Shown here piece by piece: positions 1,830 to 64,000 of a stretch of DNA of 64,000 nt (positions are counted from its first letter, which is position 1; each line of letters opens with the position of its first letter). A program made the position numbers and the translations under genes. The DNA is taken from the NCBI GenBank assembly GCA_963665665.1, contig OY762428.1:4896001-4960000 (forward strand), given 5' to 3'. Under the pieces are notes generated by a model. The model did not search any database and had not been told where the DNA came from. It saw only the letters and a list, made by a program, of their open reading frames with translations. Source of the stretch: Candidatus Kapaibacterium sp. (lineage in GTDB: Bacteria > Bacteroidota > Ignavibacteria > Kapaibacteriales > UBA2268).

Positions 1830-3977
1830 ATGAAGCAAACCATATTCCCGATCATTTTATTAACAATCTTAATTTTCAAAACCAACAGCACAATATCAGG
1901 TGAAATACCTTTGCAGATGATGCCGGAAGTTCAACACTTGGATGAAGTAAAATCGCAGGTAAGATGCAACTGCTCGAAAAAATACCACGACATGCCTATG
2001 CGGGTGGAGTTTATGCCGATTGAGAAAAGGCCTTACGATGTTTCGAAATTAAATATTTCAATTGACTGGTATCACCTTTTTGCCGGTGATTCAGCTGATG
2101 TTTTTTCCAATCCCTTATGGTATGCAAATGTGATTCTGGATGTGAAAATCCTTGATGAAAGTATTGACAAAATTGTTTTTGATTCGTACAATTTGAATAT
2201 TGACTCTGTTCTTTTTGAAGGAAATACTGTTCAGTTCACTACTTCAATCGATGACCAGGCTTTGGAAATTATACCGGGTAGAGTCCTTGAGGCAAACGAA
2301 GATGTTAGCTTTCAAATATTTTATCATAAAAATATCAGGAATGAAGACGGCTTTTTCCTATTCGAAGAAGGCCGCTATGTTGGCATGGGTGCCAATGGTG
2401 ATACCATCAGGGTTGAGGAAAGGGTTGCTTACACACAAAGCGAACCCAACCTGACAAGAACCTGGGTTCCATGCAACGACAGCCCCTACGACAAATCTTT
2501 TGTGGAACTTAATTTTATTGTACCGGAAGGGTTCACGTCGGCATCGAACGGGCTTTTGAAAAATGATTACGTTTCGGATGGTAAAAGATATCAAAAATGG
2601 GTTCCGAGAGATAAAATGGCCCCATACCTGATGGTGGCAAATGCTTCTAAATTCTATCAATATTCTGACTGGTATAAAAAAGTTACAAATCCTGAAGATT
2701 CCATCGAAGTTCAATATTATGTATGGGAGAAAGATTATCTGAATGAAAAACGTGACGGTACTGTTTACAATCCGCGTTTCGCATTTGATAATACTGTAAT
2801 GATGATAGAAGAATACTCAAAACTATTTGGTGAATACCCTTATGAAAAATATGGTATGGTAACTGTGCAGCCATATTATTATGGCGGTATGGAGCACCAG
2901 ACTTTGTCAACAGTGAACAGGGTATGGCTTCGCGGTTATAGTTATTATGGCATAGCCCATGAACTTGCTCACCAGTGGTTCGGAGATTTGATAACCTGTG
3001 CCTCATGGTATGATATATGGATTAACGAGGGAGCCGCAACATGGGCTGAAGCTCTTTGGGGTGAAAGAAAATGGTATAAGGATATTTATTACGATGTAAT
3101 GATGAATGCCCGGAAAACATACCTTCGCAAAGGTGGCTTAAGTATGCCGCAAATATACGGGCTGCCGGTAGAAACTATTTTCGGATCGAATTATGTTCTT
3201 GTGTATGACAAAGCAAGCTGGATATACCACATGCTCAGGGAAAATCTCGGCGATGATGTATATTTCTCCACTCTTCAAAAAATGCTGAATGATTATAAAT
3301 TCCAGGCAATAGATTCAAAACAGTACCAGGAAGTATTTGAAAAATACGTACCTGATCCCGAGATTGATTTTGAAACATTCTTCGGACAGTGGCTATACAG
3401 TGCCGGGCATCCTGTTTACAGGATTGAATCTGTTAATCATATCCACGAGAACGGCAGCTCTGATGTTGCGCTGACTCTTATGCAGGTTCAGGATGGTGAT
3501 AATGTTCCTGAATTATTTAAAACGCCTTTGTGGATTAACTTCTTTGGGCCTGATTCCACTATTGTTACTCACAGGATTTTAAATGTTGAACAAAACCAGG
3601 TTGAGTATTTTACATTGCCTTTTGTTCCTGATTCACTTCATATTGATATCAGGAAAACTTTATGTGAGGAACATTCCGTGATTACTGATATCAGAGAAAG
3701 CAATGACAATATATCCGATAATGAAATCAGCATTTATCCCAATCCGGTATTGGGTGCAAATGAGTCGATTCTAAAAATAAATACCGGGGCTTCGGCAGTA
3801 AAGGCAGAAATATATGACGAAATGGGAAATAAAATAAGAGATTTATATAATGGAAATGTACCTGCAGGTAATTATGAGATTCCCATAAATGTTGAAGGTA
3901 TGGCGTCTGGCAGGTATTTTATCCGTACAATTATCAACGGAAGTCCGACAGTTAAGCCGTTTACTTATTTTAAATAA
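1830..3977 (+). CDS. M1 family aminopeptidase with T9SS type A C-terminal domain
   Basis: Signal peptide, GGMEH, HELAH-x18-E (INEG) zinc motif, C-terminal ISIYPNP...IYDEMG...SGRYFIR. Confidence 0.9.
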   Translation: MKQTIFPIILLTILIFKTNSTISGEIPLQMMPEVQHLDEVKSQVRCNCSKKYHDMPMRVEFMPIEKRPYDVSKLNISIDWYHLFAGDSADVFSNPLWYANVILDVKILDESIDKIVFDSYNLNIDSVLFEGNTVQFTTSIDDQALEIIPGRVLEANEDVSFQIFYHKNIRNEDGFFLFEEGRYVGMGANGDTIRVEERVAYTQSEPNLTRTWVPCNDSPYDKSFVELNFIVPEGFTSASNGLLKNDYVSDGKRYQKWVPRDKMAPYLMVANASKFYQYSDWYKKVTNPEDSIEVQYYVWEKDYLNEKRDGTVYNPRFAFDNTVMMIEEYSKLFGEYPYEKYGMVTVQPYYYGGMEHQTLSTVNRVWLRGYSYYGIAHELAHQWFGDLITCASWYDIWINEGAATWAEALWGERKWYKDIYYDVMMNARKTYLRKGGLSMPQIYGLPVETIFGSNYVLVYDKASWIYHMLRENLGDDVYFSTLQKMLNDYKFQAIDSKQYQEVFEKYVPDPEIDFETFFGQWLYSAGHPVYRIESVNHIHENGSSDVALTLMQVQDGDNVPELFKTPLWINFFGPDSTIVTHRILNVEQNQVEYFTLPFVPDSLHIDIRKTLCEEHSVITDIRESNDNISDNEISIYPNPVLGANESILKINTGASAVKAEIYDEMGNKIRDLYNGNVPAGNYEIPINVEGMASGRYFIRTIINGSPTVKPFTYFK

Positions 3978-4025
3978 TTTTGATATTGTATAAGACATGC
4001 AATCACTTGTTTCTTTATCTTTACG

Positions 4026-4060
4026 AAATATCCGATACCTCGGTGGTATCGGATATTTTT
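4026..4060. terminator. Bidirectional intrinsic terminator
   Basis: AAATATCCGATACC-TCGGT-GGTATCGGATATTTTT hairpin between convergent genes. Confidence 0.75.
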
Positions 4061-4128
4061 ATCTACAAATAACATCCTTTTCATATTGAAGCTTATTTTT
4101 TATTCTTCCAACCCACTTTGCTTTCCTT

Positions 4129-4512
4129 CTATTTAAACTCCTTGCCGCAGTCCCGGCATTTGTAGTTCGGATTAATATTGCCAATCGGAACGAATGTAAA
4201 AATCGAAAGCAATATCGTTACAATTTTTTTAAACTTATTACTGCCAAGGCCGGATTCAATATTCGACGATCCGCATTCCGGGCATTTCAGTTCAAATTTT
4301 TGGTTCAGCCCGAGAATCTCCACTGCGTTGTCGTAATCTTCGGCATTTATTATTATCTGGGCACCGGAACCCATTAATTTGTAATAATTCGGAAGCATAT
4401 CAGACATATTCCTGTTAGTTATGAAGCATGGAATGCCTTCGCTTTCCAGTTTCCCCCGGATAATATCCGCCTCGACAGAGGATTCGCAGGTCATTAAGCG
4501 CATTGTTTTCAT
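4129..4512 (-). CDS. DUF2007-like protein with zinc ribbon
   Basis: EADIIRGKLESEGIPCFI N-terminal domain; CPECGS...CRDCG pair flanking a hydrophobic segment. Confidence 0.75.
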   Translation of the reverse strand: MKTMRLMTCESSVEADIIRGKLESEGIPCFITNRNMSDMLPNYYKLMGSGAQIIINAEDYDNAVEILGLNQKFELKCPECGSSNIESGLGSNKFKKIVTILLSIFTFVPIGNINPNYKCRDCGKEFK

Positions 4513-4664
4513 ATCTTAACTAATTCAATACTTGAATAATCATCTTTTAAAAATAATATTTTATGTTTGCAATATTAATAAATTCATCTGATGAAAAAAA
4601 TTCGATTTATTTAAAGTTTAAATTATTTATTTTTGCGATAATTATAATTTACTCGGGAAGCGTC

Positions 4665-6554
4665 ATGAGAAAATGGACAATTGAAGATTCGGCGGAACTT
4701 TACAACGTAAAGGGATGGGGCCTAAATTATGTTGGTATAAATAATCAGGGGAACCTGTTTGTAAAGCCAAATTCGGGTAGTCCGGAAATCGATATAAAAG
4801 AGATAATTGACGAGTTGAACCTTACGGATGTAAATACGCCGGTACTTCTCAGGTTTCCGGATATTCTGGACAGCAGGATTGAAACTTTGGCTGAATGTTT
4901 TGCCAAATCCTCTGAAGAATACGAGTACAAGGGAAATTATTTTACGGTCTATCCGATTAAAGTCAACCAGACCAAGCAGGTAGTGGAAGAAATCCTGCGA
5001 TACGGTAAAAAATATAATATCGGCCTGGAAGCCGGATCAAAACCCGAATTACATGCTGTTCTGTCATTCACTGAAAATTCCGATGCTCTGATAGTTTGTA
5101 ACGGATATAAAGATGATGATTTTATCGAGCTTGCACTGCTTGCACAGAAAATGGGCCGGAAGGTTTATATTGTAGTAGAGAAACTCAATGAATTAAGGCT
5201 GATCATAAAAAAATCGAAACAGCTTAATGTTGCTCCCAATATTGGTATCAGGGTGAAACTTTCCAGCGAAGGAAGTGGTAAATGGGAGGATTCCGGCGGA
5301 GACAGGAGTAAATTCGGGCTCAATGCCAGTGAACTTCTCGAGGCAATAGCAATGGCTGAAAAGGCAAAAGTTCTTGACAGGATAAAACTCGTTCATTTTC
5401 ACCTCGGGAGCCAGATTACTAATATTAGAAATATCAAAAATGCACTCAGGGAAGCTTCTCAGTTCTACGTTCAATTATGTAAAATGAATTGTTCGGTTGA
5501 ATTTGTTGATATTGGCGGCGGCCTTGGTGTGGATTATGACGGCTCAAAATCCTCTGGTTCCAGCAGTATGAATTATTATATACAGGAATATAGTAACGAT
5601 GCCGTTGCCACATTCGGGGAAGCTTGCGAGAAACACGGCTTGAAGCACCCTAATATTATTTCCGAGTCAGGAAGGTCACTTACAGCTCATCATACTCTGC
5701 TGGTTTTTGATGTACTTGAAAAAACAACGCTGCCGTCATGGCCGGAAGATGAAGAAACAACTGATAATGATCATGAATTAACCAAAGAGCTTTACGATAT
5801 ATGGGATAATTTTACATTGCAGGGTATGCTTGAGTCCTGGCATGATGCCTTACAGATAAGGGGAGAGGCTTACGATCTGTTTTCACTCGGCCTGCTCGAC
5901 CTTAGCACAAGGGCTAAAATTGAAAGGTTGTTCTGGTCAATAGCCCGGGAAGTTTATCATGCCAGCCAGGAGATGAAACATCCTCCGCCGGAATTGCGAA
6001 AATTATCGAAAATGCTTGCTGATAAATATTTTTGCAATTTCTCTCTGTTCCAGTCTTTGCCGGATTCTTGGGCAATAGACCAGGTATTCCCGATTATGCC
6101 GATTCACAGGCTGAATGAGAAACCGAACAGGGTGGCTACTCTCCAGGATATTACATGTGATTCCGACGGTAAGATTGATAACTTCATTGGTGCACGCGAT
6201 ATAGCTTATTATCTTCCGGTGCATGATTTCAAAAAAGGCAAGCCATATTATATTGGGGTTATGCTAATAGGAGCCTACCAGGAGATACTTGGTGATATGC
6301 ACAATCTTTTCGGAGATACAAATACTGTTCATATTAAAATTAAAGATAATTATTACGTAATTGACCAGGTAATTGACGGGCAGACGGTTACGGAAGTATT
6401 GGAATATGTTCAGTATAATAGCAAAAAGATGGTCCGAACAATGGAAACATGGGTAAGCCGTGCAGTGAAAGAAGGCAGGATAACAGCTGTGGAAGGAAAA
6501 GAATTCCTGTCGAATTATAAATCAGGATTATACGGATATACATACTTGGAATAG
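4665..6554 (+). CDS. speA: Biosynthetic arginine decarboxylase
   Basis: YPIKVNQ PLP-lysine motif, LEAGSKPEL, HFHLGSQ, DITCDSDG, GAYQEILGDMHNLFG; start moved to MRKWTIEDS. Confidence 0.95.
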   Translation: MRKWTIEDSAELYNVKGWGLNYVGINNQGNLFVKPNSGSPEIDIKEIIDELNLTDVNTPVLLRFPDILDSRIETLAECFAKSSEEYEYKGNYFTVYPIKVNQTKQVVEEILRYGKKYNIGLEAGSKPELHAVLSFTENSDALIVCNGYKDDDFIELALLAQKMGRKVYIVVEKLNELRLIIKKSKQLNVAPNIGIRVKLSSEGSGKWEDSGGDRSKFGLNASELLEAIAMAEKAKVLDRIKLVHFHLGSQITNIRNIKNALREASQFYVQLCKMNCSVEFVDIGGGLGVDYDGSKSSGSSSMNYYIQEYSNDAVATFGEACEKHGLKHPNIISESGRSLTAHHTLLVFDVLEKTTLPSWPEDEETTDNDHELTKELYDIWDNFTLQGMLESWHDALQIRGEAYDLFSLGLLDLSTRAKIERLFWSIAREVYHASQEMKHPPPELRKLSKMLADKYFCNFSLFQSLPDSWAIDQVFPIMPIHRLNEKPNRVATLQDITCDSDGKIDNFIGARDIAYYLPVHDFKKGKPYYIGVMLIGAYQEILGDMHNLFGDTNTVHIKIKDNYYVIDQVIDGQTVTEVLEYVQYNSKKMVRTMETWVSRAVKEGRITAVEGKEFLSNYKSGLYGYTYLE

Positions 6555-45834: not shown

Positions 45835-46080
45835 GTAATTCTGAACGCAGCGAAGAATCCAGTATTCATGCAAGCTATGGATCCTTTGATTCTCTCAGGA
45901 TGACATCCCCCAACTTCTTCGCAAAATTCAATAGCCACGTGCTCTATCTCGTGGATAAGGGAGGCTAAGAAAAAGAAACCACCCCTGTATTCCCCTCTAC
46001 TTTAGGAGGGGATAAGAAGTTAAATAACATAGAATTAACTCCCCCTCCTTTCGAAGGAGGGGGCCGGGGGGAGGTAGGAA
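45835..46080. repeat. Cluster of REP/MITE-like palindromes
   Basis: GTAATTCTGAACGCAGCGAAGAATCC...CAGGATGAC; AATAGCCACGTGCTCTATCTCGTGGAT; CCCCTCCTTTCGAAGGAGGGG. Confidence 0.75.
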
Positions 46081-46091
46081 GGGTCTATGGT

Positions 46092-46931
46092 AATGCACCG
46101 ATGGTCGACACTATTGAACCAATGTTTTGCTTTATTGCCGCCTTGTTTTGCTTCAAAGACCTCCCCTTCGGGGAGGGTTTGGGAGGGGTCAGAAGAAATG
46201 CACCGATGTTTGATGATATTTCCGCCTTGTTCGACACTATTGCAGCAATGTTTTGCTTTATTGCTGCCTTGGTCCAAATCGATGCACCGATGGTTGAAGA
46301 TAATGAATTCTTGGTCGACACTATTGCACCGATGTTTGGAGTCATTGCACCGATGTTCTAAGCTATTGCACCGATGTTTGGAGTCATTGCTGCCTTGTTC
46401 CAAATCGATGCACCGATGTTTGATGATAATGAACTCTTGTTTGAAGGCATTGAACTCTTGTTCGGAGGCAAAGAACATGTTCAGTAAGGTCAAACAAGCG
46501 TGGGATGAGGCCAAACAAGCGTGGGATGAGGCTAAACAAGCGTGGGATGAGGCCAAACAAGTGTGGGATAATGTCAAACAAGCGTGGGATAATGTCAAAC
46601 AAGCGTGGGATAATGTCAAACAAGCGTGGGATGAAGTCAAACAAGCGTGGGATGAGGCCAAACAAGCGTGGGATGAAGTCAAACAAGCGTGGGATGAGGC
46701 CAAACAAGCGTGAGATGAAGTCAAACAAGCGTGGGATGAGGCCAAATTTCACTACAATAAGGCCAAACAGTAGTTCAATAACTCCGGCCAAGGCAGTTTA
46801 AAGCCCTGCAATCCAAGCAATTAGCCCAAACATCAGGATTTTGATTAAAAACAGCATTGAATTAAGGGAATTATCCGGTTCATTGAAACCACAGGATGGG
46901 GAATTAAGGGCGGTGCTTGGTTCATTGGGGT
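46092..46931. repeat. Composite 21-bp tandem array, about 40 units in one phase
   Basis: Degenerate ATTGCACCGATGTTTGGAGTC-type units 46092-46490; 12 conserved CAAACAAGCGTGGGATGAGGC units 46491-46742; degenerate tail with 42-bp repeats to about 46930. Confidence 0.92.
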
Positions 46932-46971
46932 GGAAGAACGGGGGGTAAGGGCAGGAGAAGGAGGTATTATG

Positions 46972-47200
46972 TTGTCATTCCCCGACACGTCACCGAAAAA
47001 TCGGTGCAGGCAGGGGCAGGCTTCCGGAGCTTGCGACTGAAGAATCCATCTTCTTTAGCCAGATAATGTATAGGAATGGATACTTCGCTCCGCTCAGTAT
47101 GACATCCGCCCAGAGCATCGCAAAATTCAATAGCCAGGTGCTTTAGCTCGTGGATAAAGGAAGCTAAGAAAAAGAAACCACCCCGCCCTTCGGGTATCCT
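46972..47200. repeat. Cluster of REP/MITE-like palindromes
   Basis: GAAGAATCC...GGATACTTCGCTCCGCTCAGTATGAC; AATAGCCAGGTGCTTTAGCTCGTGGAT...AAGAAACCACCCC. Confidence 0.75.
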
Positions 47201-47205
47201 TCGAG

Positions 47206-49792: not shown

Positions 49793-49888
49793 GGGGGTAG
49801 GAAGGGGCAGCAGGATATTTTCAATTTCATTTTCTTGATAAAAACCTTTGTTTTCTCATTTCATTCAGCTAATTTTGTACTGATAGTT

Positions 49889-50060
49889 TATGGGTGTTCT
49901 CCGTGAACCCACGGCAAACTTAAAAGGGAAGCATGTGAAAATCATGCACGGTTGCGCCGCTGTAACGGGGGACGAGCTTTTCAGGCCGAGAGGCAGCCAC
50001 TGCGGAAACGCGGGAAGGCGAAAAGCAAGAACGATCCCGGAGTCAGAAGACCTGCCCATG
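49889..50060 (+). ncRNA. Cobalamin riboswitch
   Basis: AAAAGGGAA, CCGCTGTAA, GCCACTG, GGGAAGGC, B12 box GAGTCAGAAGACCTGCC; P1 ATGGG/CCCAT; upstream of B12 uptake genes. Confidence 0.92.
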
Positions 50061-50208
50061 AATCTCATTGGCCGCCATTTGTGGCGACATCCGCGCTAAC
50101 GGATGCAGTGAAGAGATTTGATGATAAAACACTCGCACATCACTCCCGCTCATTGTACATACTCGTTAGCAAACAGTTTTGTTTGTTGAATTATCTTTTT
50201 CGAGGTTT

Positions 50209-51555
50209 ATGATGAAAAAACTTTTACTTACTTTCGCGATAGCTTTTGTTTTTTGCATGGCAAATGTTTCCGCACAGCTTAACGAGGTAATGGAAATTCA
50301 GGTTGGCACACAACCTATGGCTATTATTACCGACGAGGCAAACCAGTGCTATCATGTTTTCTGTAACGGCCAGGATATTAACTGGGACGGCATCCAGGAT
50401 GAGGGAGACGAAACACAGTCATGGTGGAAAATCCCTTTCTTACCTGAAAATTTTGACCCCGGAGCAGCTATAAAAGCAGAAAAAGTAAGGGATTTTGATT
50501 TCATGCGCATGGTATTTCCGTTCCGTCCGGGTTATAATGCTGAAGAAGGAATTGTCTATCTTTCTGATATTTCCGGCGCTACAAAGGCATATAATACAAG
50601 TAACGGCGAGTTGATAAATGATCTGAATCTGCCAACAGATTTATCCTCAACTGATGGTTTAAACAATTTTATCTTTGGAACTTCTACAACAGCTGAAGGC
50701 GACGGCATTCTTGAGATAATTGACGGAGTCGGTGGCCTTATAGAAAGTTACGAGGTCAACAAGAATCCATTCATGACATTGGCGTTTGAATACAATGGCA
50801 AAATTCATATAGTAGTGGCAAGCTATGGCGATTACAACTCTGATGATTCTGCTGTTGAAATTTTTATTGAAGATAATGTTGGTTTTACATTGGCTGCTAA
50901 GTTTGAACATTTGGGCAATACGCTGAACTATCTTACATTTTTTGAAGGTAAAATTGCCGCTGTTTCTAATGGATCGCACAAAATTGATATTATTGATTTG
51001 GAATCACTAACTATCGAAAAATCCATCAATTTGCCAACAACAGGTTATGATGGCCCGCGGGAATGCGTTTACTCTAAGGCTCACGAGCTTTTATTCGTTT
51101 CGGCTTACGATGGAAATATTTATTCTGTAAACCCTGAAACAGGAGAAGTTCTTACAGCAGTTGAAGCAGGCTGCAAAACGGAAGGCATGGCTTTCCAAAG
51201 CCCCAAATATGTGCTTGGAACGGCTATTATGGAAAAAGGCGCTTATACTTATATGGACAAGATAATCGTTTACGAAGTGAAATATACATCCGTTGATGAT
51301 AATAATTATAACTACAGCGTTTATCCGCTTCCGGCAATCAACGCTATTACAATTCAGTTCAATGAAGATATTATTTCTGCAGATAATCTCGTTGTTTACA
51401 CTCAGAACGGTGGCAAAGTAAATATCAACAACTCGTCAATAAATGCAAATAAACTAAACCTTGAACTGGCAAATTCCATTTCAAACGGTTTATACATTGT
51501 TAGTTTTACATCAAACGGTGTTGAATATAAAGTTCCGTTTGTTGTTAATAAATAA
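50209..51555 (+). CDS. YncE/BtuG-like beta-propeller with T9SS C-terminal domain
   Basis: Signal peptide, propeller-like repeats, SVYPLPA...NGLYIV...KVPFVVNK; first gene after the riboswitch. Confidence 0.7.
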   Translation: MMKKLLLTFAIAFVFCMANVSAQLNEVMEIQVGTQPMAIITDEANQCYHVFCNGQDINWDGIQDEGDETQSWWKIPFLPENFDPGAAIKAEKVRDFDFMRMVFPFRPGYNAEEGIVYLSDISGATKAYNTSNGELINDLNLPTDLSSTDGLNNFIFGTSTTAEGDGILEIIDGVGGLIESYEVNKNPFMTLAFEYNGKIHIVVASYGDYNSDDSAVEIFIEDNVGFTLAAKFEHLGNTLNYLTFFEGKIAAVSNGSHKIDIIDLESLTIEKSINLPTTGYDGPRECVYSKAHELLFVSAYDGNIYSVNPETGEVLTAVEAGCKTEGMAFQSPKYVLGTAIMEKGAYTYMDKIIVYEVKYTSVDDNNYNYSVYPLPAINAITIQFNEDIISADNLVVYTQNGGKVNINNSSINANKLNLELANSISNGLYIVSFTSNGVEYKVPFVVNK

Positions 51556-51672: not shown

Positions 51673-53793
51673 ATGATAAAGAAAGTCATTCAGAGCGAAG
51701 CGAAGAATCCGGTATCGCAAACGGGCTTTATTTCCTTATGGATTCTTCCGTTGATTCGCTCCATCAGAATGATTCTAAAAAACGTTAATAGTATTCATAC
51801 AAAACCGTTTGTTTTCAACTCCATTGGAAATCAAATTAGTTACTGTACACCAAAATTGTATTCTTCATTTTTTTCAGCTTTAATCGTTATTACATTTACT
51901 CCATTCAATTTATTATCCCAACAGCCCGATACGCTTAGCAAAACCACAGATGAGATTAACGTAAGCGCTGACAAACCGGTAAGCTCTCCTGCTATGAAAT
52001 ATAACTCCCTTGTCAATATTGATACGGAAACAATAGAGCGCAAAGCTCCGCTGCAGGTGAATGAAATCCTGGAGCAGATACCCGGCCTGCATATCAAAAA
52101 TTACGGGGGGCTGGGAGGATTGAAAACTATTTCTTTGCGCGGAACTTCATCACGTCAAAGCCTTGTACTTCTGAATGGTATGAAACTGAATTCATCGCAG
52201 AACGGCAGCCTTGATTTAAGCTCGCTGCCGGTTATATTAATTGAAAGTATTGAAGTAATGAAAGGCGGAGGCTCTTCGCTTTTCGGTAGTTCTGCTATGG
52301 GAGGCGCAGTTAATATTCAGTCGGGCAATATCACAGACAACTTTTTACTACTTAATATCAGCGCGGCATCTTTCAGACAGTACTATTTTGGCATTAAAAA
52401 GGGCTGGGATTCCGACAATTATTCAACCGGAATATTGGCGGAATATGTGAACGGAAAGGGTAATTATCCTTTCATCATTAACGAATACGGCAAGGAAACT
52501 GAGCTAATTAGAAAAAACGGGGATTTCAGCAATCTGTCACTTGGTTCGACTTTCAATTATAAAAATACCGGAACATCAATAAACGCTTTGCTGCTGTTCC
52601 GGGATAGCAAACGAGGCGTTCCGGGCGCTGTAATCCCTGGAAACGCTATCCTTTCTGATTCAAGAATGACAGAACAGGAAGTATTGTTCAATACAAACAT
52701 AAAAAATGATATTGGAAACGGAGTATGGTCCGAATTATCAGCATTAACACGATTAAATGAAATGCAATACTGCGATCCGTCGCAACTTCAATACGATCCG
52801 GTGACCGGACTTGACAACCTGTTTACAAACAGGGAAGTATTAATTAAACCCGGGCTATATTATATCGGGGATTCTTTCCGTATAGACCTGAATTTGGAAG
52901 GCTCCTACTCGGATTTGCGCGGAGATATGCTCCAGGAAAACACCGGCAACATGGTTTCAAGGCGCTCGTTTGCCATTGCCTCCGGTTTCGAGAATTATTT
53001 CATTGATGATTCTGCTCAGGCACTGTCATTTCAAACCAGTGTCAGGTTCGACGCCGTCAGCGATGCGGGAAATGCTTTCTCGCCAACAGCCGGGTTGATC
53101 TATTCTTGGAAAACAATTCCTGTTAATTTCAGGGCTGCTTTTTCCGGCAGTTTCCGCGCCCCGAGTTTTAATGAAATGTATTACCTGAACTTCGGAAATG
53201 ACGATTTGAAACCGGAAAAGTCAAATTCCTTCAACTTTGGAGTTGATATTGTTCCGTTTGAATTTATCCAAATCAGCTCGGATGCTTTCCTGATAACAAC
53301 AAAGGACAGGATTATTTCAATTCCGATCAGCCCTATCCAGTGGAGTTCAAAAAACCTCGGAGAGACAAGATCAATTGGATTTGAAGTGAGTTCTTCAATA
53401 GATATTATGGATATGCTGAATATAAATCTTTCATATACCAGGCAGGAAGCCACAAACGAAACCGACGGCGACAGAGACAAAGGGAAAATACTGGTTTATA
53501 CCCCGCAGGAATTACTGGCGATAAGGCCGGAATTCAATGTATTTGATATTACAATTATCGGAGAAATAAACTACACCGGATTTACATATTTCCAGACTGA
53601 TAATTCAATAAATTCACTTATTCATTCCTATACCCTGGTAAATATATCTGTAAATTATGATTTTCAACTTCTGGGAATGAATACTTCGCTTAAGTTATTA
53701 GCTGACAATATTTTTAACAAACAGTATTCTGTAATTGCAAATTATCCCATGCCTGGCAGGTTATTCAGGCTGGCGATGGGATTTAAGATATAG
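51673..53793 (+). CDS. btuB: TonB-dependent cobalamin receptor (start uncertain)
   Basis: Plug YGGLGGLKTISLRG...LVLLNG, FRAPSFNEMYY..GN.DLKPE, C-terminal YPMPGR; under a B12 riboswitch. Confidence 0.85.
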   Translation: MIKKVIQSEAKNPVSQTGFISLWILPLIRSIRMILKNVNSIHTKPFVFNSIGNQISYCTPKLYSSFFSALIVITFTPFNLLSQQPDTLSKTTDEINVSADKPVSSPAMKYNSLVNIDTETIERKAPLQVNEILEQIPGLHIKNYGGLGGLKTISLRGTSSRQSLVLLNGMKLNSSQNGSLDLSSLPVILIESIEVMKGGGSSLFGSSAMGGAVNIQSGNITDNFLLLNISAASFRQYYFGIKKGWDSDNYSTGILAEYVNGKGNYPFIINEYGKETELIRKNGDFSNLSLGSTFNYKNTGTSINALLLFRDSKRGVPGAVIPGNAILSDSRMTEQEVLFNTNIKNDIGNGVWSELSALTRLNEMQYCDPSQLQYDPVTGLDNLFTNREVLIKPGLYYIGDSFRIDLNLEGSYSDLRGDMLQENTGNMVSRRSFAIASGFENYFIDDSAQALSFQTSVRFDAVSDAGNAFSPTAGLIYSWKTIPVNFRAAFSGSFRAPSFNEMYYLNFGNDDLKPEKSNSFNFGVDIVPFEFIQISSDAFLITTKDRIISIPISPIQWSSKNLGETRSIGFEVSSSIDIMDMLNINLSYTRQEATNETDGDRDKGKILVYTPQELLAIRPEFNVFDITIIGEINYTGFTYFQTDNSINSLIHSYTLVNISVNYDFQLLGMNTSLKLLADNIFNKQYSVIANYPMPGRLFRLAMGFKI
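51685..51773. repeat. 89-bp GTCATTC...GAATGA palindromic element inside the btuB 5' ORF
   Basis: GTCATTCAGAGCGAAGCGAAGAATCC...GGATTCTTC...TCAGAATGAT. Confidence 0.8.
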
Positions 53794-56022: not shown

Positions 56023-56355
56023 TTATCTTAATAGAACTTCAGGTATATTAATTTCAATTCCGGTTTTCAAAATTTCATTTGCCAAAGGGTTTCCGGAATT
56101 AAATTCAAATTTAGTAAACGGGTGCGGTTCAATCCTGATATCCACTTCCCTTCGTAACTTCATAAGTTGCATCTGTAATTCAAATATATTTTCAATATTA
56201 TCAAAAATTATTGCAATATCAATATCGCTGCTCTCGGTTTCAATACCTTTAGAATACGAACCAAATATATAGGCCTCCCTGATTTGCAAATTATCGGAAA
56301 CTTTGCTTATATAAGAGTCCGCAATTTTCAATATTGACTTTTTAACCATTGCCAT
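56023..56355 (-). CDS. Minimal nucleotidyltransferase (MNT antitoxin-like)
   Basis: YIFGSYSKG...SDIDIAII...RIEPHP. Confidence 0.85.
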   Translation of the reverse strand: MAMVKKSILKIADSYISKVSDNLQIREAYIFGSYSKGIETESSDIDIAIIFDNIENIFELQMQLMKLRREVDIRIEPHPFTKFEFNSGNPLANEILKTGIEINIPEVLLR

Positions 56356-56714: not shown

Positions 56715-57017
56715 TTATGAAGCACTGTTTCCCGTGTCGCATGCCGTTCCATAAGTTGAACCATCACCGCAACCCAAAAAGCCTGCTGCGCTGAAACCAG
56801 TATTACAATATCCGGAGTTGGGACTACTGCCAGGATCGCAACGACTCAAAGAGACAAAACCGCCTGTTTCACAATATCCGCCGGCAGAGTTCCCAATATC
56901 ACAGGCGTCTGAAGCTCCGCCCGAACTTGCTGCAGAACCGGTAGAACAATATCCAATTGCCGTTTCAGAATCAAAGCTGCGAAGTTTAGGCGCCGAGTAG
57001 GATAGTATTTTTCTTAT
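56715..57017 (-). CDS. Putative RiPP precursor: YxxPxL leader + seven CxxG repeats
   Basis: GGAG SD 5 nt before an ATA codon at 57017; YSAPKL leader; Gly/Ser-rich core. Confidence 0.6.
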   Translation of the reverse strand: MRKILSYSAPKLRSFDSETAIGYCSTGSAASSGGASDACDIGNSAGGYCETGGFVSLSRCDPGSSPNSGYCNTGFSAAGFLGCGDGSTYGTACDTGNSAS

Positions 57018-57176
57018 AAATACTCCATTATTTATTACTAAAACCAATGTATTATAAACAATAATCTGCAATTAAATTTTACTTAATTATGCATAAGCTT
57101 CATAAACCAGATAGTCTTTATCCCTATTTTTCAGATATACCTTTTATCTTGTGTTAAAAATATATTATTTGATATA

Positions 57177-60100
57177 TTAGAAAGCCATTGCTTTCTTTAT
57201 TTCAGCCAGGAACTGTTCCAGAACTAATGGCTTGTCAATTCTTCCAACGAAACCATAGTCCTGATAATTTGAAACTACCGGTTTGTCAAAATGCCCGCTG
57301 AATACTAATGCCCTGACATTATGATCAATTTTCCTTAGTTGCCTGAGTACATCAAGGCCATCAACGTTATACCCGATCAAAGTAAGATCCAGAATAACCA
57401 GGTCGTATTTTCTGCTGTCAAGAGAATTTTGATATTCCTCGACAAGTAATTCCGGATCAGAAAATCCAGTTATTGAAATATTATATTCAAGAAACAGATC
57501 TTCAATATTTTCAAGAATTTCCCTATTATCATCAAGCATCAGGATGGTAACTAAATTTTTGAATTTAAAATTCTTAGAATCTTTTAAAATGTTGTCTTTT
57601 TCAGGAACATTGACAGGTAAAAAGATTGAAAATGTAGTTCCATTGCCAGGTGTTGAATAGACCTTAATTTCACCATTATGTTTTTTGATAATATTATATA
57701 CTGTTGCTAATCCGAGTCCGTGCCCGCCTTCTTTTGTTGTAAAAAACGGCGTAAAAATTTCATTTATTTTATCGGAGGGAATACCAATACCTGTATCTTC
57801 AATATCAATTTGTATGCTATTGCCGTTCAATAACTGATCTTTTCCTTCGTTGATGAGAGACCTGATATAGATATTTCCACCTTTGGGCATAGCCTGGCTG
57901 GCATTAAGTAATAGATTGGTCAGTACCTCATTTATCCTCTTGGCATCAAGAAGTATTTTTGGAATATCATTATAAAGTTCAAATTTCGGTACTATACTTG
58001 TTCCTGTTAATGCCATTTCTGTAGCCTCCAGGATAATTGAATTAATATCAACTGGCTCAAGAACAGGCTGGTCGGTTTTGGAGAATGTCTGGAACCTTGT
58101 TGCAAGTGCTGATGCCTGATCAATAGCTCTGATTATCTTTGCAAGGTGTTTTTCAGACTTTTCAGGCCTGGCTTTTGCGATTTCGGCGCTCAATGCCATT
58201 GCAGTCAGTATGTTTTTAAAGTTATGTGCTATCCCGCCAGCTATTACACCGAGTGATTCCATTTTCGATATTCTTTGGAGTTCTTCTTCATGACGCTTCT
58301 GGTTCAACACCGAATTGAGCATGGGAGAAATATAACTACAGATATCCTCCAAAAAATTCAGATGTTTATCATCAAAACCATTCTTGATGTCAGCAACACC
58401 TATCTGGCCGATCAATTTTTCCCTATAAATTATGGGTACTGCTAAAGCATTCCTTAGCTGAACGTGTCCATCCGGTAGTGATAATCCTTCATTTTGGAAA
58501 ATGCTTTTTTTCGTTTTCAAACTTTCTCCCCAAATTCCACCCCAAACTTCAATTGGAAATTCAATTGATTTGTCAGACATCCGGCATTTATCCCAGATAT
58601 CGGAAGTCATTGACGGGCAAATAAGACTTTGCTGCTCGGTTATATAGCCAAAGTATCCGAATTTACAGTTTAGAAAATCTAAAACAATTTTCAGGATCTT
58701 GTTGAAGACCATTTCTTCTGATCTCAGTACGAATGCATTAGAAATTTTATTTTTGAGAAGGATTTCATCTCTGGATCGTCTGATTTCTTCTTCAGCTTTT
58801 ATGCGGTCGCTAATATCCTGAACAGTACCAACAATATTTGTAATATTTCCTTTATCATCCTGTACGGGCTTACCTATGATATGGAGAGTTTTCTGTTTAC
58901 CAGAAGGCATCACTGCCATTAAGTCCAGATCATAGTCCCTGGCATTCTGTAACGCTTCGATAACGGCAGTTTCCAATCTCTTTGCATCTTCTTCAGTATG
59001 CAATTTCATAATTTCCTCATAGCCCGGAACATCAAGTTCTGGCTCACGCTCGTATATTCTGAAAACTTCATCAGACCAGTAGGAACGCTGCTCTGCCACG
59101 ACCCAATCTACATGACCAAGTTTACCAATTTTTTCGGCTCGCTGAAGTTTCTGTTCTCTTTCCTGCAGCGCATCCTGTGTTTTTTTCAAATCTGTAATAT
59201 CCGTAGAGAAAACAATTATTCCTATAATATTCTCATTTTCATCTTTTACCGGAACTTTATCGGTTAGAAGCCATTTGACAGAACCATCAGACGTAGGAAG
59301 CTGCTCAATATATCCCATTTTGGGAACGCCGCTTTCCAATACTTCTTTATCGTCCTCATAATATTGATCAGCCATGGTGGGGTAAATCTCTGCTGATGGC
59401 TTTCCTTCGATCTCTTCCTTTGGAAGATTGGTCATCTTGGCTACTGTATCGGTGATTTTAATAATATTGTTTTCTGTATCTTTATAAATAATAAAAGATG
59501 GGTCATTGTCTAATAGTATTTTCTGATCGCTGAGCAATTTTTTCATTTTGCTTTCTGCATTCTTGCTATCAGTAATATCTCTGGAAATTACAACTGTTCT
59601 TTTTTCATCTTCAGAATACTGATAAACTCTTCCTTTCGACTCAATATACCTATATGAGCCATCCTTATGTAAGAATCTCCAGACATCTTCACTTACACCT
59701 GAATTATTTGTAAGTTTCTCATATTTTTTTAAACTCGCTTCAAGATCTTCAGGGTGTATTAAATCACTTACCGGCTTTCCTAATAAATCATCAGGTTCAT
59801 ATCCTAATACTTCTTTGTAATTTTGGCTAAGATAGGTATAATTTCCATTTATATCAATTTCACAGATTAAATCATTAATATTATCAACCAGCAGTCTATA
59901 TTGTTGTTCACTTTCTTTCAGCTTTTCTTCTGCTTTTTTTCTTTCGGTAATATCCATAATGATTGAATGTAGCATATCTTTTCCTGCGTATTTCACATTA
60001 GATGAATAGACAGACACATCTCTGACGGAACCATCTGAAAGTTTGTGCTTAAACTCCATATTTTTGATGTCCCTTTTTCTTACCTTTTGTAGTTCCTTAT

Positions 60101-63100
60101 CAATCTCTACCTTGGAAAGTGTATTGATTTCAGAAATTTTCATTTTACGAAGTTCTGTCTGTGACCAGCCATAATATTCAGCAGCCGCTTCATTTGCGTC
60201 CACAATCCGGCCATCATCAGGATCAATCAGCAGTTTTACTGCACTATGTTTTTGGAATAAATTTCGAAATAATGTTTCACTTTCAATCAGCCGTGCTTGA
60301 ACTTTATTTTTCTCAGTAATATCATCTACAATAGCAAGACCAAGGGTAGGATTGCCTTCGGAATCGCGAATAGAACCTGCATGGAGCAGAACATCGATCA
60401 AGCTGCCGTCTTTTCTTATATATTTTTTTTGGATCTCAAATCTATTATTCATACCCTCAGTCATTTTATTGAACTTAGAGCGATTAGTAGTGTGATAATC
60501 AGGATGGGTAATATCAAAGAATGATAAATCAGATAATTCTTCTTTTGTGTAGCCCAGCATATTTTCATAAGCAGGATTTGTAAGTATGAAATTTCCTTCT
60601 AAATCATTGATACATATTCCAAGTGGAGAATTATCGATTAGCAGACGCAGTTTTTCTTCACTTTCTCGAATAATATTTTCCGCTTTTTTTCTTTCAGTTA
60701 TATCATGAATTACTCCGGAAACTTTGCTGGGATCACCCTTTTCGTCTTTTTCTAAAATTGCAATTGAGTGGACTATTCTGGACTCACCTTTAGTTTTGGT
60801 AATTATCTCAAATTCAAGATTATAAGGTTTATCCTTTTCTATCAAATCCATCAAGGCACGATGCACATTTTCTCTTTCCGGAATACATTCTTCTACTTCA
60901 TCTGTAGTAAAATTCTTTGCTCCGGGATCGAATCCATAGATTTTTTTTGCTTCATCAGACCCCCAGAAATGTGTGGTTTTCAGGTTGTATTCCCAATTTC
61001 CAACATGTCCAATCTCCTGAGCTGTTCTATAGCGTTGTTCATTTATTTTAATTTCTTCCTGTATTTTTCTGCGAGCAGTAATATCTTTTACAAAACCCAG
61101 AAAAAGAATATCAGAAAGCTTAACAGCATCTATTTCCCAGAAACGGTTCTTACCCGATTTAGTAACATAACCTATTTCAGCCTGGGCAAATCCCTCTGCC
61201 TTAACTTTTTTGAAATGCTGGATTCCTTTTTCTATCTCGGACTTCTGTAACAGATCGGGAATATATTTTTGAAGTAGTTCTTGTTCAGTATATCCCGTAA
61301 TATCGCAGGCGGCTTTGTTCACTTCAAGATATTTGCCGTTTTCATTGGCGATAAAAATTCCATCTGGAGCATTATCTATATAAGAACGGAATTTAGCTTC
61401 ACTTTCCCGAATTTTATCTTCAGCTTCTTTTCTTTCCGAAATATCAGTCAGTGACCCAACAATCGATATAACATTTCCATTTTCTGAAACCGGAGATTCT
61501 CTAACTTCCACAATGATCTTTTTACCATCTTTCCTTAGCATTTCAAGCTCATAAGTAGGTTGTCGCTTACCAGTTGATAATGCATTTTCCGTGAATTTTA
61601 TTGCTTTATCATTTATTGGATTATCAGTAATGAAATCTTTCCATTTCTGCATAACTTCTTCTGGTTCATATCCAAGTAGTTCTTTAACCTGCGGACTGAT
61701 GAAGGTTAATTCTCCAGCTGCATTGTGTATATAAAAAAGATTGGTGCTGTTTTCAATTATGTTTTTAAGTTTTGTTTCACTTTTCTTTAGTGCTTCTTCT
61801 GCTTTTTTTCTTTCTGTTATATTAATAAAATTAATGATGAAGTAATCGTCGATAAGCGGAAAAGCAGTTACTTCCAGAATTCTATCATATACATCAAAAT
61901 GCCGTTCGTAATTAATTGTTTTCGAGTCAGATATGACGTTACCGTATAAGTCCACCATCTGTTTTAAAGTTGCCTCATCAATAAGTTCAGATGCTTTTTT
62001 ACCTCTTAAGAGATCCAGATCAACCCCTGTATGAGCTTTTACTGATTCATTTAACTGTATGTGTATAAAATCTTCAAACTCATTTTTATCATTTTTTATC
62101 ATCTGGCAAATTGCGATGCCAAATGGTGATTTTTCATAAAGATTTCTAAATTTTTCTTCACTGGTTTTAATTTGTGCTTCCGCTTTCTTTTTTTCTGTAA
62201 TATCTGTACCTACAGCTGTTACAATTCCATTTTTATCTGCTTTTGTTCCAAACCAGGCAATCCATTTATATGTGCCATCTTTACATAAATAGCGATTTTC
62301 AAAGGAAACAACTTCCTTTCCTTTGATCTGCTCATCTTTTTCCTCTGCTGATTCATGCCGATCATCGGGATGAATCAATTCCATAAAGGGCGTTGAAGTA
62401 AATTCTTCAACTGAGTAACCTAAAAATTTTGTTACTGCTTTATTCGCTTCAATAAAATGCCCTGATTGTAAATCTGCTTTTGCTATGATACTCGGTGATA
62501 GATCAAACGTATTTTGCAGCCTCTCCTGGCTAAGTCTGAGTTTTTCTTCTGCTTGCTTCCGATCTGTAATATCTATCCATTGGCAAATCACATTTATCAA
62601 TTCACCATCGGCATTCTGAATTGGAAACAATGATACATCAATCCAGAAAGTTGCAGCCTCTTCAAGGCTTTCAACTTCTGATTTTTCACCTGACCATTCA
62701 ACTTCAAATCTTGCGGGTTCAAAATCTGTAATTACCTTTTTTATTTTTTCCTTTATATCGGGCTTGCTAAGGTTTTTATCATCAAATACATTGTACTTCC
62801 CAACAATTTGTTCATCACTCAGTTTTAATGTATCCCTTAACGCTTTATTAGTTCTTAAAACAGTTCCTTTTGCGTCCGCAATCCACATAGCAAATGGACT
62901 ATACTCCATTGAATTATTAAGAAATGTAGTATGTTTCTTGATCTCCTGTTCCGCTTTCTTACGATCGGTAATATCTGTCATGGTTCCAACCATTCTGACT
63001 GGATTTTTTTCAGAATCCCATTCCATGACTTTACCTTTGCCTTTCACCCATATCCAATTGCCGTCGCCAGTTCTTAAACGGTGGTCCATCTCCCAAAATT

Positions 63101-63563
63101 CTGTTTTGTTCTCTAAATGCAGGTTAAGAGTTTTTAATACTTCATCTCTATCATCCGGATGGAGTCGGGTTTTCCAAAGGTCAAATGAATTTGATTCTTC
63201 ATCAATATTTAAAATTTTTTTCCATGCATGACTGTAAAACACTTTGTTTTTGGAAATATTCCAGTCCCAAATGCCATCCTGAGATGCTTTCATTGCATAA
63301 TCGAAGCGCTGTTCGCTTTCTTTTAATTCTTTTTCATTAGCCAGTAATTGGCGGTTGGCAGCCCGTAATTGCTGTTCATTTGCCTGTAATTGCTGATTAG
63401 CAGCCCGTAATTGCTGTTCATTTGCCTGTAATTGCTGATTGGCAGCCCGTAATTGCTGTTCATTTGCTGCAAGCTGTTGATTGGCTGCTCTTAGCTGCTG
63501 CTCATTGGCTGACAACTGTTGATTGGCTGCTCGTAATTTAGAATCTGACGAATTTTTTCCCAT
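57177..63563 (-). CDS. Cytoplasmic hybrid histidine kinase: Gln-rich coiled coil, about 12 PAS, GAF, HisKA, HATPase, REC
   Basis: 12 D(N)I(T/S)xRK-type PAS-terminal motifs; H-box IAHNFKN; N box NASQAM; DTGIGI, FFTTK, GLGL; REC LMLDD...ILDL...KP. Confidence 0.93.
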   Translation of the reverse strand: MGKNSSDSKLRAANQQLSANEQQLRAANQQLAANEQQLRAANQQLQANEQQLRAANQQLQANEQQLRAANRQLLANEKELKESEQRFDYAMKASQDGIWDWNISKNKVFYSHAWKKILNIDEESNSFDLWKTRLHPDDRDEVLKTLNLHLENKTEFWEMDHRLRTGDGNWIWVKGKGKVMEWDSEKNPVRMVGTMTDITDRKKAEQEIKKHTTFLNNSMEYSPFAMWIADAKGTVLRTNKALRDTLKLSDEQIVGKYNVFDDKNLSKPDIKEKIKKVITDFEPARFEVEWSGEKSEVESLEEAATFWIDVSLFPIQNADGELINVICQWIDITDRKQAEEKLRLSQERLQNTFDLSPSIIAKADLQSGHFIEANKAVTKFLGYSVEEFTSTPFMELIHPDDRHESAEEKDEQIKGKEVVSFENRYLCKDGTYKWIAWFGTKADKNGIVTAVGTDITEKKKAEAQIKTSEEKFRNLYEKSPFGIAICQMIKNDKNEFEDFIHIQLNESVKAHTGVDLDLLRGKKASELIDEATLKQMVDLYGNVISDSKTINYERHFDVYDRILEVTAFPLIDDYFIINFINITERKKAEEALKKSETKLKNIIENSTNLFYIHNAAGELTFISPQVKELLGYEPEEVMQKWKDFITDNPINDKAIKFTENALSTGKRQPTYELEMLRKDGKKIIVEVRESPVSENGNVISIVGSLTDISERKEAEDKIRESEAKFRSYIDNAPDGIFIANENGKYLEVNKAACDITGYTEQELLQKYIPDLLQKSEIEKGIQHFKKVKAEGFAQAEIGYVTKSGKNRFWEIDAVKLSDILFLGFVKDITARRKIQEEIKINEQRYRTAQEIGHVGNWEYNLKTTHFWGSDEAKKIYGFDPGAKNFTTDEVEECIPERENVHRALMDLIEKDKPYNLEFEIITKTKGESRIVHSIAILEKDEKGDPSKVSGVIHDITERKKAENIIRESEEKLRLLIDNSPLGICINDLEGNFILTNPAYENMLGYTKEELSDLSFFDITHPDYHTTNRSKFNKMTEGMNNRFEIQKKYIRKDGSLIDVLLHAGSIRDSEGNPTLGLAIVDDITEKNKVQARLIESETLFRNLFQKHSAVKLLIDPDDGRIVDANEAAAEYYGWSQTELRKMKISEINTLSKVEIDKELQKVRKRDIKNMEFKHKLSDGSVRDVSVYSSNVKYAGKDMLHSIIMDITERKKAEEKLKESEQQYRLLVDNINDLICEIDINGNYTYLSQNYKEVLGYEPDDLLGKPVSDLIHPEDLEASLKKYEKLTNNSGVSEDVWRFLHKDGSYRYIESKGRVYQYSEDEKRTVVISRDITDSKNAESKMKKLLSDQKILLDNDPSFIIYKDTENNIIKITDTVAKMTNLPKEEIEGKPSAEIYPTMADQYYEDDKEVLESGVPKMGYIEQLPTSDGSVKWLLTDKVPVKDENENIIGIIVFSTDITDLKKTQDALQEREQKLQRAEKIGKLGHVDWVVAEQRSYWSDEVFRIYEREPELDVPGYEEIMKLHTEEDAKRLETAVIEALQNARDYDLDLMAVMPSGKQKTLHIIGKPVQDDKGNITNIVGTVQDISDRIKAEEEIRRSRDEILLKNKISNAFVLRSEEMVFNKILKIVLDFLNCKFGYFGYITEQQSLICPSMTSDIWDKCRMSDKSIEFPIEVWGGIWGESLKTKKSIFQNEGLSLPDGHVQLRNALAVPIIYREKLIGQIGVADIKNGFDDKHLNFLEDICSYISPMLNSVLNQKRHEEELQRISKMESLGVIAGGIAHNFKNILTAMALSAEIAKARPEKSEKHLAKIIRAIDQASALATRFQTFSKTDQPVLEPVDINSIILEATEMALTGTSIVPKFELYNDIPKILLDAKRINEVLTNLLLNASQAMPKGGNIYIRSLINEGKDQLLNGNSIQIDIEDTGIGIPSDKINEIFTPFFTTKEGGHGLGLATVYNIIKKHNGEIKVYSTPGNGTTFSIFLPVNVPEKDNILKDSKNFKFKNLVTILMLDDNREILENIEDLFLEYNISITGFSDPELLVEEYQNSLDSRKYDLVILDLTLIGYNVDGLDVLRQLRKIDHNVRALVFSGHFDKPVVSNYQDYGFVGRIDKPLVLEQFLAEIKKAMAF
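63327..63536 (-). repeat. Coding 42-bp tandem repeat, (LRAANQQLxANEQQ) x5
   Basis: Residues 10-79 of the kinase. Confidence 0.92.
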
Positions 63564-63584
63564 GATATCTTTTCAGTTTTTTTC

Positions 63585-64000
63585 TTAATTCCAACGTTTT
63601 AATAAAGTTAATTTTGAGTCCCCTTCAGTGTAGAAAATTTCACCGGTTTCAATATTGAAACGGACTGTTCTTCTTAAATACCCGCCTAATGATGTTGCGG
63701 AAACTTTTATTTTCAATTTTTTAAGTAGAGCAATAATAGAGATAGTGTTGTTTTTGCAGATTGTATCATCTGGTTTTTTTAGAACATTTCCTGCTCCAAT
63801 CAGGCATACTTCTATATTGGAAAATTCATCCCTGTTAATTGCCATAAATTGTAGTAATTTTTCAATTGCATCTTCGGCATATTTTGTCTTATTCTGATTT
63901 TCTGTAATAGGTGCTTTTCCAGGCAGCATAACATGAGCCATAGCACCAATTCGCTTTTCAATATTAAATGCAGCAATAACAATGCAGGAGCCAATCCCGT
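63585..64000 (-). CDS. cheD: Chemoreceptor glutamine deamidase CheD (5' end outside the window)
   Basis: Extended translation GIGSCIVIAAFNIEKRIGAMAHVMLPG (catalytic Cys/His), KYA..AI, GAGNV, GGYLRRTV.F. Confidence 0.88.
   Translation of the reverse strand, partial: GIGSCIVIAAFNIEKRIGAMAHVMLPGKAPITENQNKTKYAEDAIEKLLQFMAINRDEFSNIEVCLIGAGNVLKKPDDTICKNNTISIIALLKKLKIKVSATSLGGYLRRTVRFNIETGEIFYTEGDSKLTLLKRWN

Follow-up and report, generated by a model that had tools for sequence, protein, structure and literature searches.

A cheD gene paired with a sensor kinase that carries a glutamine-rich, receptor-like coiled coil: a candidate CheD-served signalling module

Sensor kinases with a methyl-accepting coiled coil (MAC) that are served by Che adaptation enzymes were predicted as a class in 2010. 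MAC1 systems are described as having fused and MAC2 systems as having separate CheB/CheR, and as late as 2022 the class was still called 'not experimentally characterized in any respect'. Here we analyse a stretch of 64,000 nucleotides (the window; G000:C1:4896001-4960000) from the 5.46-Mb genome of a Candidatus Kapaibacterium sp., in which a cheD gene, cheD1, is directly followed by the gene of a large hybrid sensor histidine kinase that starts with a Gln-rich coiled coil. The cheD gene and the coil are linked reciprocally and across phyla, and it is probable that cheD and the kinase gene constitute a two-gene module in which the coil is a dedicated CheD target.

The MAC account and the present case have in common that a sensor kinase takes the place of the pair of methyl-accepting chemotaxis protein (MCP) and CheA, carries a coiled coil with modifiable sites like those of receptors and is served by an adaptation enzyme. 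However, the partner in our case is CheD rather than CheB/CheR, the sites are Gln-Gln rather than Glu-Glu, and one-way deamidation, with no methylation enzyme adjacent, is predicted in place of reversible methylation. A fused or associated CheB/CheR was found neither in the kinase nor beside it. The module is best read as MAC-like in its logic, with kinases that depart from the predicted MAC type in having Gln sites and CheD as their enzyme, and as a variant rather than a member because the CheB/CheR association is missing. Of the novelty that an earlier note on this DNA attached to the tuning of a kinase by Che enzymes, the general idea is therefore already in print as the MAC prediction, whereas full-text literature searches, which did not extend to supplementary tables, found nothing on a coil of Gln type linked to CheD.

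To our knowledge, chemoreceptors are the sole known deamidation targets of CheD. Their modification sites follow a consensus motif, and this is the basis for comparing them with the A-x-x-Q-Q-x-x-A sites described below. In the part of the Bacillus subtilis literature consulted, CheD converts receptor Gln to Glu (PMC7289035). CheD1 shares with the CheD proteins of B. subtilis and Thermotoga maritima (PDB 2F9Z) the Pfam domain, the fold, the Cys and His residues and, by prediction, a substrate Gln-Gln pair in an A-x-x-Q-Q-x-x-A helix, but it is encoded outside any che cluster, lacks an adjacent cheC in the loci read and adjoins a kinase instead of an MCP. A further comparison is offered by the S-helix linkers of sensor kinases, reportedly described by Anantharaman, Balaji and Aravind in 2006. 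Like these, the coil is predicted to be a single continuous helix and lies between input domains (transmembrane, HAMP-like, receiver or PAS) and a downstream PAS or DHp; unlike them, it is a tandem modification motif of variable number (1 to more than 16 units) that is co-inherited with an enzyme.

The cheD-kinase pair and its glutamine-rich coil

The stop codon of cheD1 lies 21 nt before the kinase ATG on the same strand, an arrangement that the earlier note had described and that the sequence confirms. The features of the pair, in window coordinates, are as follows.

63585..64000, minus strand: 3' part of cheD1 (PF03975), 137 codons in the window; the gene continues past the window end to ~64070-64079 (window-equivalent)
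63564..63584, no strand: spacer of 21 nt that separates the stop codon of cheD from the ATG of the kinase gene (direct sequence reading)
57177..63563, minus strand: hybrid sensor histidine kinase with coil, ~12 PAS, GAF, HisKA, HATPase_c and receiver (REC) domains (open reading frame and Pfam)
63324..63536, minus strand: Gln-rich heptad coil, residues L10-L80 (direct reading, tandem repeat and helix model)
58779..63302, minus strand: PAS array, residues ~88-1595 (Pfam PAS_9, PAS_3, PAS, PAS_4)
58317..58721, minus strand: GAF domain, residues 1615-1749 (GAF_2, 53.5 bits)
58068..58241, minus strand: HisKA (DHp) region, residues 1775-1832 (HisKA at 24 bits, slightly below the Pfam cut-off of 26.9, with HATPase_c immediately after)
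57612..57947, minus strand: HATPase_c catalytic domain, residues 1873-1984 (96.6 bits)
57198..57545, minus strand: C-terminal receiver domain, residues 2007-2122 (Response_reg, 49.1 bits)

The N-terminus of the kinase, from L10 to Q65, consists of four perfect LRAANQQLxANEQQ units, after which one degenerate unit follows LRAANRQLLANEKE; the five copies counted in the earlier note are thus four perfect copies and a degenerate fifth. At the DNA level the coil has a period of 42 nt (4.9 copies, 85% matches; Tandem Repeats Finder), and the ten-residue matches to the receptor consensus reported before, AANEQQLRAA and SANEQQLRAA, are both present. In the heptad register of the coil, position a is Leu, c is Ala, d is Ala or Asn, e is Asn or Glu, and f and g are Gln-Gln. 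Since Ala recurs every seven residues and Gln-Gln occupies f/g, every heptad contains an A-x-x-Q-Q-x-x-A site, and direct reading finds eight such sites in succession, from Q15/16 to Q64/65. The kinase therefore has a coiled coil with heptads resembling receptor modification sites, as in the MAC type. A single-sequence AlphaFold2 model places residues 5-95 in one continuous helix, with a predicted local distance difference test (pLDDT) score of 93-98 for residues 11-80. Pfam yields merely spurious coiled-coil matches on such coils. The repeat is beyond chance and is confined to two genes of the genome, each adjacent to a cheD: a DNA pattern for NQQLxxNEQQL matches five times in the 5.46 Mb, four times in the window kinase and once in a second sensor described below, while the reversed pattern, used as a control, matches nowhere in the genome.

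The kinase is a single chain of 2128 amino acids that contains DHp, HATPase_c and receiver domains and is hence a hybrid sensor histidine kinase; a Pfam scan found no MCPsignal domain (PF00015) in it. The reading frame, length and hybrid domains are as described earlier, whereas the label 'transmembrane-free' depends on reading the translation by eye, by which the protein appears soluble. To speak of 12 PAS domains is fair, because 12 PAS-end linkers of the 'DIT-x-RK' type can be counted by eye on the translation; up to nine PAS stretches exceed the Pfam threshold.

Full-length CheD1 has 161-164 amino acids, as read from the genome sequence past the window end, and matches PF03975 with 58.9-59.4 bits (cut-off 25); the genome-wide scan gave 59.7 and 61.3 bits for cheD1 and its second copy, cheD2. 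Aligned to T. maritima CheD (2f9z_C; E 6e-15, ~26% identity), CheD1 conserves the Cys and the His, in agreement with the intact GSC...AH signature noted earlier, and G30-S31-C32 and A48-H49 are invariant in an alignment of 42 members of its clade. The T. maritima triad, which we take to be Cys27/His44/Thr21, has a conservative Ser in CheD1 at the position of the Thr. The AlphaFold2 model of CheD1 (pLDDT 94.7) finds 2f9z_C as its best PDB match (E 2.8e-15, TM-score 0.83/0.88, root-mean-square deviation 2.1 A), and the next structural matches are Cys-His amidohydrolases, namely NTAN1 and CNF-type deamidase domains. Thus, the active-site residues are intact and the CheD fold is retained. CheD1 belongs to a divergent clade, not to the standard receptor CheD proteins, since it scores far under the equivalog cut-offs of all nine NCBIfam CheD models (the best, NF041119, at 80.6 versus 240 bits). 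At least 135 homologues were found at E <= 1e-10 (209 candidates; 44-69% identity), all with PF03975 and, where the source names them, listed plainly as 'chemotaxis protein CheD'.

A promoter/terminator scan found no terminator-like site in the 21-nt spacer; for promoters the same scan was uninformative, with 27 promoter-like sites against 34.2 in shuffles. The two genes of the pair are presumably co-transcribed.

The upstream side of cheD1 was read for the next 17 kb and consists of a 1.25-kb non-coding gap followed by the 3' end of a second sensor gene with its own cheD. This second pair lies past the window end in the same order and on the same strand, cheD2 then sensor 2 (G000:C1:4961329-4965927; L005 4329..8927). 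CheD2 has 161 amino acids and is 96% identical to CheD1, and the two pairs share 93% DNA identity across the cheD-coil junction. Sensor 2, with 1363 amino acids, has PAS and GAF domains, ends in a PocR domain and carries three NQQL-type coil segments, one at the N-terminus and two internal. No kinase domain was found in it, so that kinase function, present in the window kinase and expected of MAC proteins, is lacking; judging by its domains, sensor 2 appears to be a coil-bearing CheD partner unable to phosphorylate by itself. Upstream of cheD2 is an unrelated, divergently transcribed gene of 1479 codons. Since cheD comes first in both pairs, preceded by the gap and a sensor 3' end or by the divergent gene, it is not the tail of a che operon, a possibility that the earlier note had left to sequence beyond the window, and it heads both two-gene units. 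Within the 1.25-kb gap itself lies a 21-nt tandem repeat (84-nt super-period) of 9.5 copies (L005 3610..3808, window-equivalent 64610-64808).

The genome as a whole has eight MCPsignal, eight CheW and five CheR matches, all outside the window. The statement that the window contains no MCP or CheW accordingly holds, the closest CheW/CheA-like matches lying ~52 kb ahead of its first position. All three CheD genes of the genome sit outside che clusters, and the neighbours of CheD are coil sensors and unrelated genes. Elsewhere the genome encodes an 879-residue CheB-CheR-PAS fusion that is MAC1-like (G000:C1:3791891-3794530; L020 613..3252), with a coil of its own LQSTNEELQSTNEEL and with no kinase domain found in it. 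Its heptad, L-Q-S-T-N-E-E, is the Glu version of the kinase heptad L-R-A-A-N-Q-Q and differs from it in the modified pair. Given QQ versus EE in one heptad, the same genome pairs a Gln coil with a Gln-acting enzyme and a Glu coil with enzymes that act on Glu and methyl-Glu.

Linkage of cheD and coil across phyla

Starting from the coil, a scan with the NQQLxxNEQQL DNA pattern over one genome per species (185,579 species) returned 111 stretches (loci L043-L153), whereas by our own estimate, which assumes even base composition, ~0.5 chance matches are expected. All linkage counts given here are hand tallies of motif-scan tables; the completeness of metagenome-assembled genomes and the taxonomic labels are as given or unreported, and related genomes are not independent. 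The CheD motif A-H-[VIM]-M-L-P (14 bases specified) matches 66 of the 153 loci scanned, 52 of them among the 111 coil loci. A second CheD motif adds L061, and reading adds L058 with the variant AHILLP, so that a CheD gene lies within 8 kb in at least 54 of the 111 coil stretches, some of which end too near the coil to reveal an upstream gene. In all 52 loci the CheD motif is on the strand of the coil; 48 of them have CheD first and the coil 0.4-2.8 kb behind it, and in four (L124, L137, L146, L151) the coil comes first. Three motif-negative coil loci were read, of which L058 has a cheD after all and L050 and L054 have none adjacent. From ~57 genomes in which no CheD motif adjoins the coil locus, five were picked for sufficient upstream sequence, and PF03975 occurs elsewhere in all five; in one, the sole CheD adjoins another coil, and in two the strict coil pattern was not found within 1.5 kb of CheD.

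The reverse survey started from an alignment of 42 CheD sequences (both copies of the source genome, 35 of 120 listed homologues and five from loci). A search of metagenome contigs with it gave 461 relatives, and the best 80 (loci L154-L233; 45-66% identity) were scanned. The pattern QQLxxxNQQL matches 155 of 233 loci scanned, including 48 of these 80 CheD-clade loci. The coil in these 48 is downstream on the same strand in 38, convergent at a distance of 2.2-2.6 kb in seven, divergent in one and upstream in two; the convergent loci are L204 (kinase at 2473..4887), L178, L180, L186, L191, L194 and L210. Most coil-negative CheD loci are contigs that stop less than 2 kb from cheD, and a coil is present in 27 of the 32 CheD-clade loci whose downstream flank is 2.4 kb or longer. 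Four of the five long-flank negatives (all but L171) were read: L170 and L184 have no coil gene, L172 retains a 103-residue remnant with one LQAANQQL unit, and L218 carries a short NQQLRASEQQL coil directly before the DHp that the strict pattern had missed. Since both L058 and L218 escaped them, the motif scans undercount. The enrichment of cheD beside coil-bearing proteins, which the earlier note had proposed as a check, is thus seen from either side (at least 54 of 111, and 48 of 80).

The titles of the positive loci include Bacteroidales, Marinilabiliales, Prolixibacteraceae, Lentimicrobiaceae and Ignavibacteriales, and further Planctomycetota (Sedimentisphaerales, Pirellulales), Omnitrophota, Cloacimonadota, Fibrobacterota, Spirochaetales and Firestonebacteria; two positive metagenome-assembled genomes are labelled Actinomycetes. 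The pairing spans at least eight phylum-level labels, together with several domain architectures and gene orientations. Architectures of the partner proteins include the following.

L074: receiver-coil-PAS-HisKA_3-HATPase, with an adjoining NarL-type regulator
L044, L058, L218: two-transmembrane sensor-coil-HisKA-HATPase
L067: transmembrane-coil-x-coil-PAS-HisKA_3
L046: multi-PAS protein with an internal coil
L204: 804-residue hybrid kinase with a coil of ~230 residues (~16 units), convergent with cheD

The number of coil units among relatives ranges from 1 to more than 16. The transmembrane sensor-coil-DHp relatives have ~580 and the receiver-coil-PAS relatives ~600 amino acids, and the paired enzyme has 160. 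Only cheD and the Gln heptads are common to the neighbourhoods read; other neighbours do not recur. The Glu-type pattern EELxxxNEEL matches one of 241 loci, which is the CheB-CheR fusion of the source genome, and no CheD or coil locus. Neither cheR nor cheB was found beside the pair in the loci read (the source pair and the neighbourhoods of eight relatives). CheR and CheB had also been suggested as possible modifiers of the coil; none is present in these loci, and it is a separate protein, the CheB-CheR fusion, that carries the coil of Glu type. The CheR motif CSTGEExY matches none of the 111 coil loci, although this count is weak because the motif misses three of the five CheR genes of the source genome and recovers just two.

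Proposed mechanism and competing explanations

In the mechanism that we favour, CheD would turn the Gln pairs at f and g of the coil to Glu, up to 16 residues per chain in the window kinase. A neutral zipper would thereby gain negative charge at its f and g positions, with Glu at g facing Glu or Asn at e' of the partner helix. This would alter the signalling helix in its stability or its register and, as a result, the output of the PAS, DHp and kinase domains. The change would be one-way for each kinase molecule, because a methyltransferase and an esterase do not accompany the pair. That the coil is a dedicated CheD substrate, as suggested in the earlier note, accords with the place of cheD at the head of each pair and with its enrichment beside coils, either of which might have told against it; on this basis we would predict that CheD deamidates the coil and thereby affects the kinase. 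A complex prediction for two copies of kinase residues 1-95 with the CheD alignment scored 0.04 against a mark of 0.32, which speaks neither for nor against such a contact.

As to independence from chemoreceptors, five module-bearing genomes were picked for phylum spread from the 54 positive loci, their completeness being unreported. MCPsignal was found in one of the five and CheR in three; the MCPsignal domain was not found in the other four, and in two genomes (4.5 and 2.1 Mb) neither CheR nor MCP was found. Receptor independence of the proposed switch is therefore supported outside the source genome, whereas the source genome itself has eight MCPs.

Several observations weigh against a dedicated CheD target. 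The source genome has these eight MCPs, and its che clusters contain no CheD, so that CheD1 and CheD2 could also serve the MCPs. Clade CheDs without a coil neighbour exist (L170, L184), as do coil kinases without an adjacent cheD (L050, L054), and CheD1 has the Ser in place of the triad Thr. The support for such a target consists of sequence and model data. Finally, in the consulted part of the B. subtilis work the interaction of CheC and CheD outweighs their enzymatic activities in importance, and CheD activates CheA via receptor binding (PMC7289035); if binding by CheD outweighs catalysis, the conserved linkage proves partnership and not turnover.

This last point leads to an explanation that we hold to be unlikely, yet which has the B. 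subtilis precedent behind it, namely that CheD is a non-catalytic or incidentally catalytic regulatory subunit. It would then influence the kinase through docking on the receptor-like sites along the coil, whose large number would provide avidity. All of the linkage evidence is as compatible with binding as with catalysis. However, all 42 clade members keep the active-site Cys and His together with the surrounding G-S-C and A-H, which argues for retained CheD chemistry, and the coil sites stay Gln-Gln, neither Glu nor mixed, which gives them the look of a substrate for a Gln-specific enzyme. Rather improbable, in our judgement, is a full adaptation system of the MAC type, in which CheD would mature the coil from Gln to Glu and CheR/CheB encoded elsewhere would methylate and demethylate it reversibly. 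Five CheR-domain genes in the genome, the CheB-CheR fusion among them, the presence of CheR in three of the five module genomes and the MAC systems with Che methylation enzymes predicted in the literature consulted would fit such a system, but CheR/CheB is not adjacent to the pair in any locus read, neither CheR nor MCP was found in two of the five module genomes, and the CheR motif is absent from the 111 coil loci, a weak count given the two of five own CheR genes that it catches.

We give very little credence to the coil being a decoy, that is, a CheC-like mimic of receptor sites that sequesters CheD so that the sensor sets the CheD supply to the chemoreceptors. The eight MCPs, the absence of CheD from the che clusters and the three coil segments of sensor 2 in a protein with no kinase domain would suit this idea, but MCPsignal was not found in four of the five module genomes, and the coil of most relatives is placed at the junction between sensor and DHp, where a signalling helix would be. 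That a functional link is absent, the coil being no more than a Gln-rich linker common in PAS kinases, with cheD carried along by shared ancestry or mobility, is disfavoured to the point of being hardly credible. The two pairs of the source genome do represent one duplication, as their 93% DNA identity at the cheD-coil junction indicates, and the CheD1 type is patchy in its phylum (11 of 401 genomes including the source genome, and none of six of the same family), which would fit lateral spread as a unit. Against this, the linkage outlasts changes of architecture, DHp type, gene order and orientation over at least eight phylum labels, other genes are not common to the neighbourhoods read, and the coil is missing from every other gene of the source genome.

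If the coil is indeed a CheD target, CheD would gain a second class of targets beside chemoreceptors, and covalent 'adaptation' chemistry would move from chemotaxis into ordinary two-component signalling. The module would also be a tractable entry to the MAC idea, as the small relatives and the 160-residue enzyme should be easy to express, with a predicted readout of +0.984 Da per site and changed autophosphorylation. One genome holds both forms of the heptad, Gln with CheD and Glu with CheB-CheR, and so offers a natural comparison, and the variation in repeat number suggests a tunable element that is possibly useful in synthetic signalling. A bolder generalisation, which we put forward tentatively and regard as somewhat doubtful, is that of a widespread class of two-component regulation in which a stand-alone CheD clade irreversibly 'burns' a Gln-Gln array within the partner kinase's signalling helix. 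Such a coil might count charge by degrees and in one direction, as a fuse or timer with its capacity given by the number of repeats (1 to more than 16), and might operate without chemoreceptor, CheA, CheR or CheB in at least eight phyla, including lineages where an MCP gene was not found.

Other CheD arrangements and the remainder of the window

A 316-residue REC-CheD fusion (G000:C1:4252651-4253601; L017 9651..10601) is the remaining, third CheD of the genome. Because receiver and linker are similar to the first half of CheB (NCBIfam PRK00742 positions 2-186), this protein may be a deamidase under the control of phosphorylation. It lies between genes for a D-Ala-D-Ala carboxypeptidase and multihaem cytochromes. 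In small genomes of the same phylum (L032, L033, L034-L036), CheD relatives of 36-40% identity lie beside single-domain receivers and PAS/GAF histidine kinases, with no NQQL coil seen in the short loci L032, L033 and L035; this type may represent another receptor-independent CheD arrangement.

On the 3' side of the window kinase are genes for a 110-residue Polbeta/NTP_transf_2 nucleotidyltransferase (56023-56355, minus strand) and a protein of 118 residues without a Pfam match (56715-57071, minus strand); no cognate response regulator or Hpt gene was seen adjoining the hybrid kinase. Farther away, window positions 46001-48000 have a GC content of 0.507, compared with 0.31-0.44 in the rest of the window, and are not rRNA, as they have no Rfam match. 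A cobalamin riboswitch (RF00174, 97.2 bits) at 49875-50073 on the plus strand precedes the open reading frames 50179..51555 and 51673..53793.

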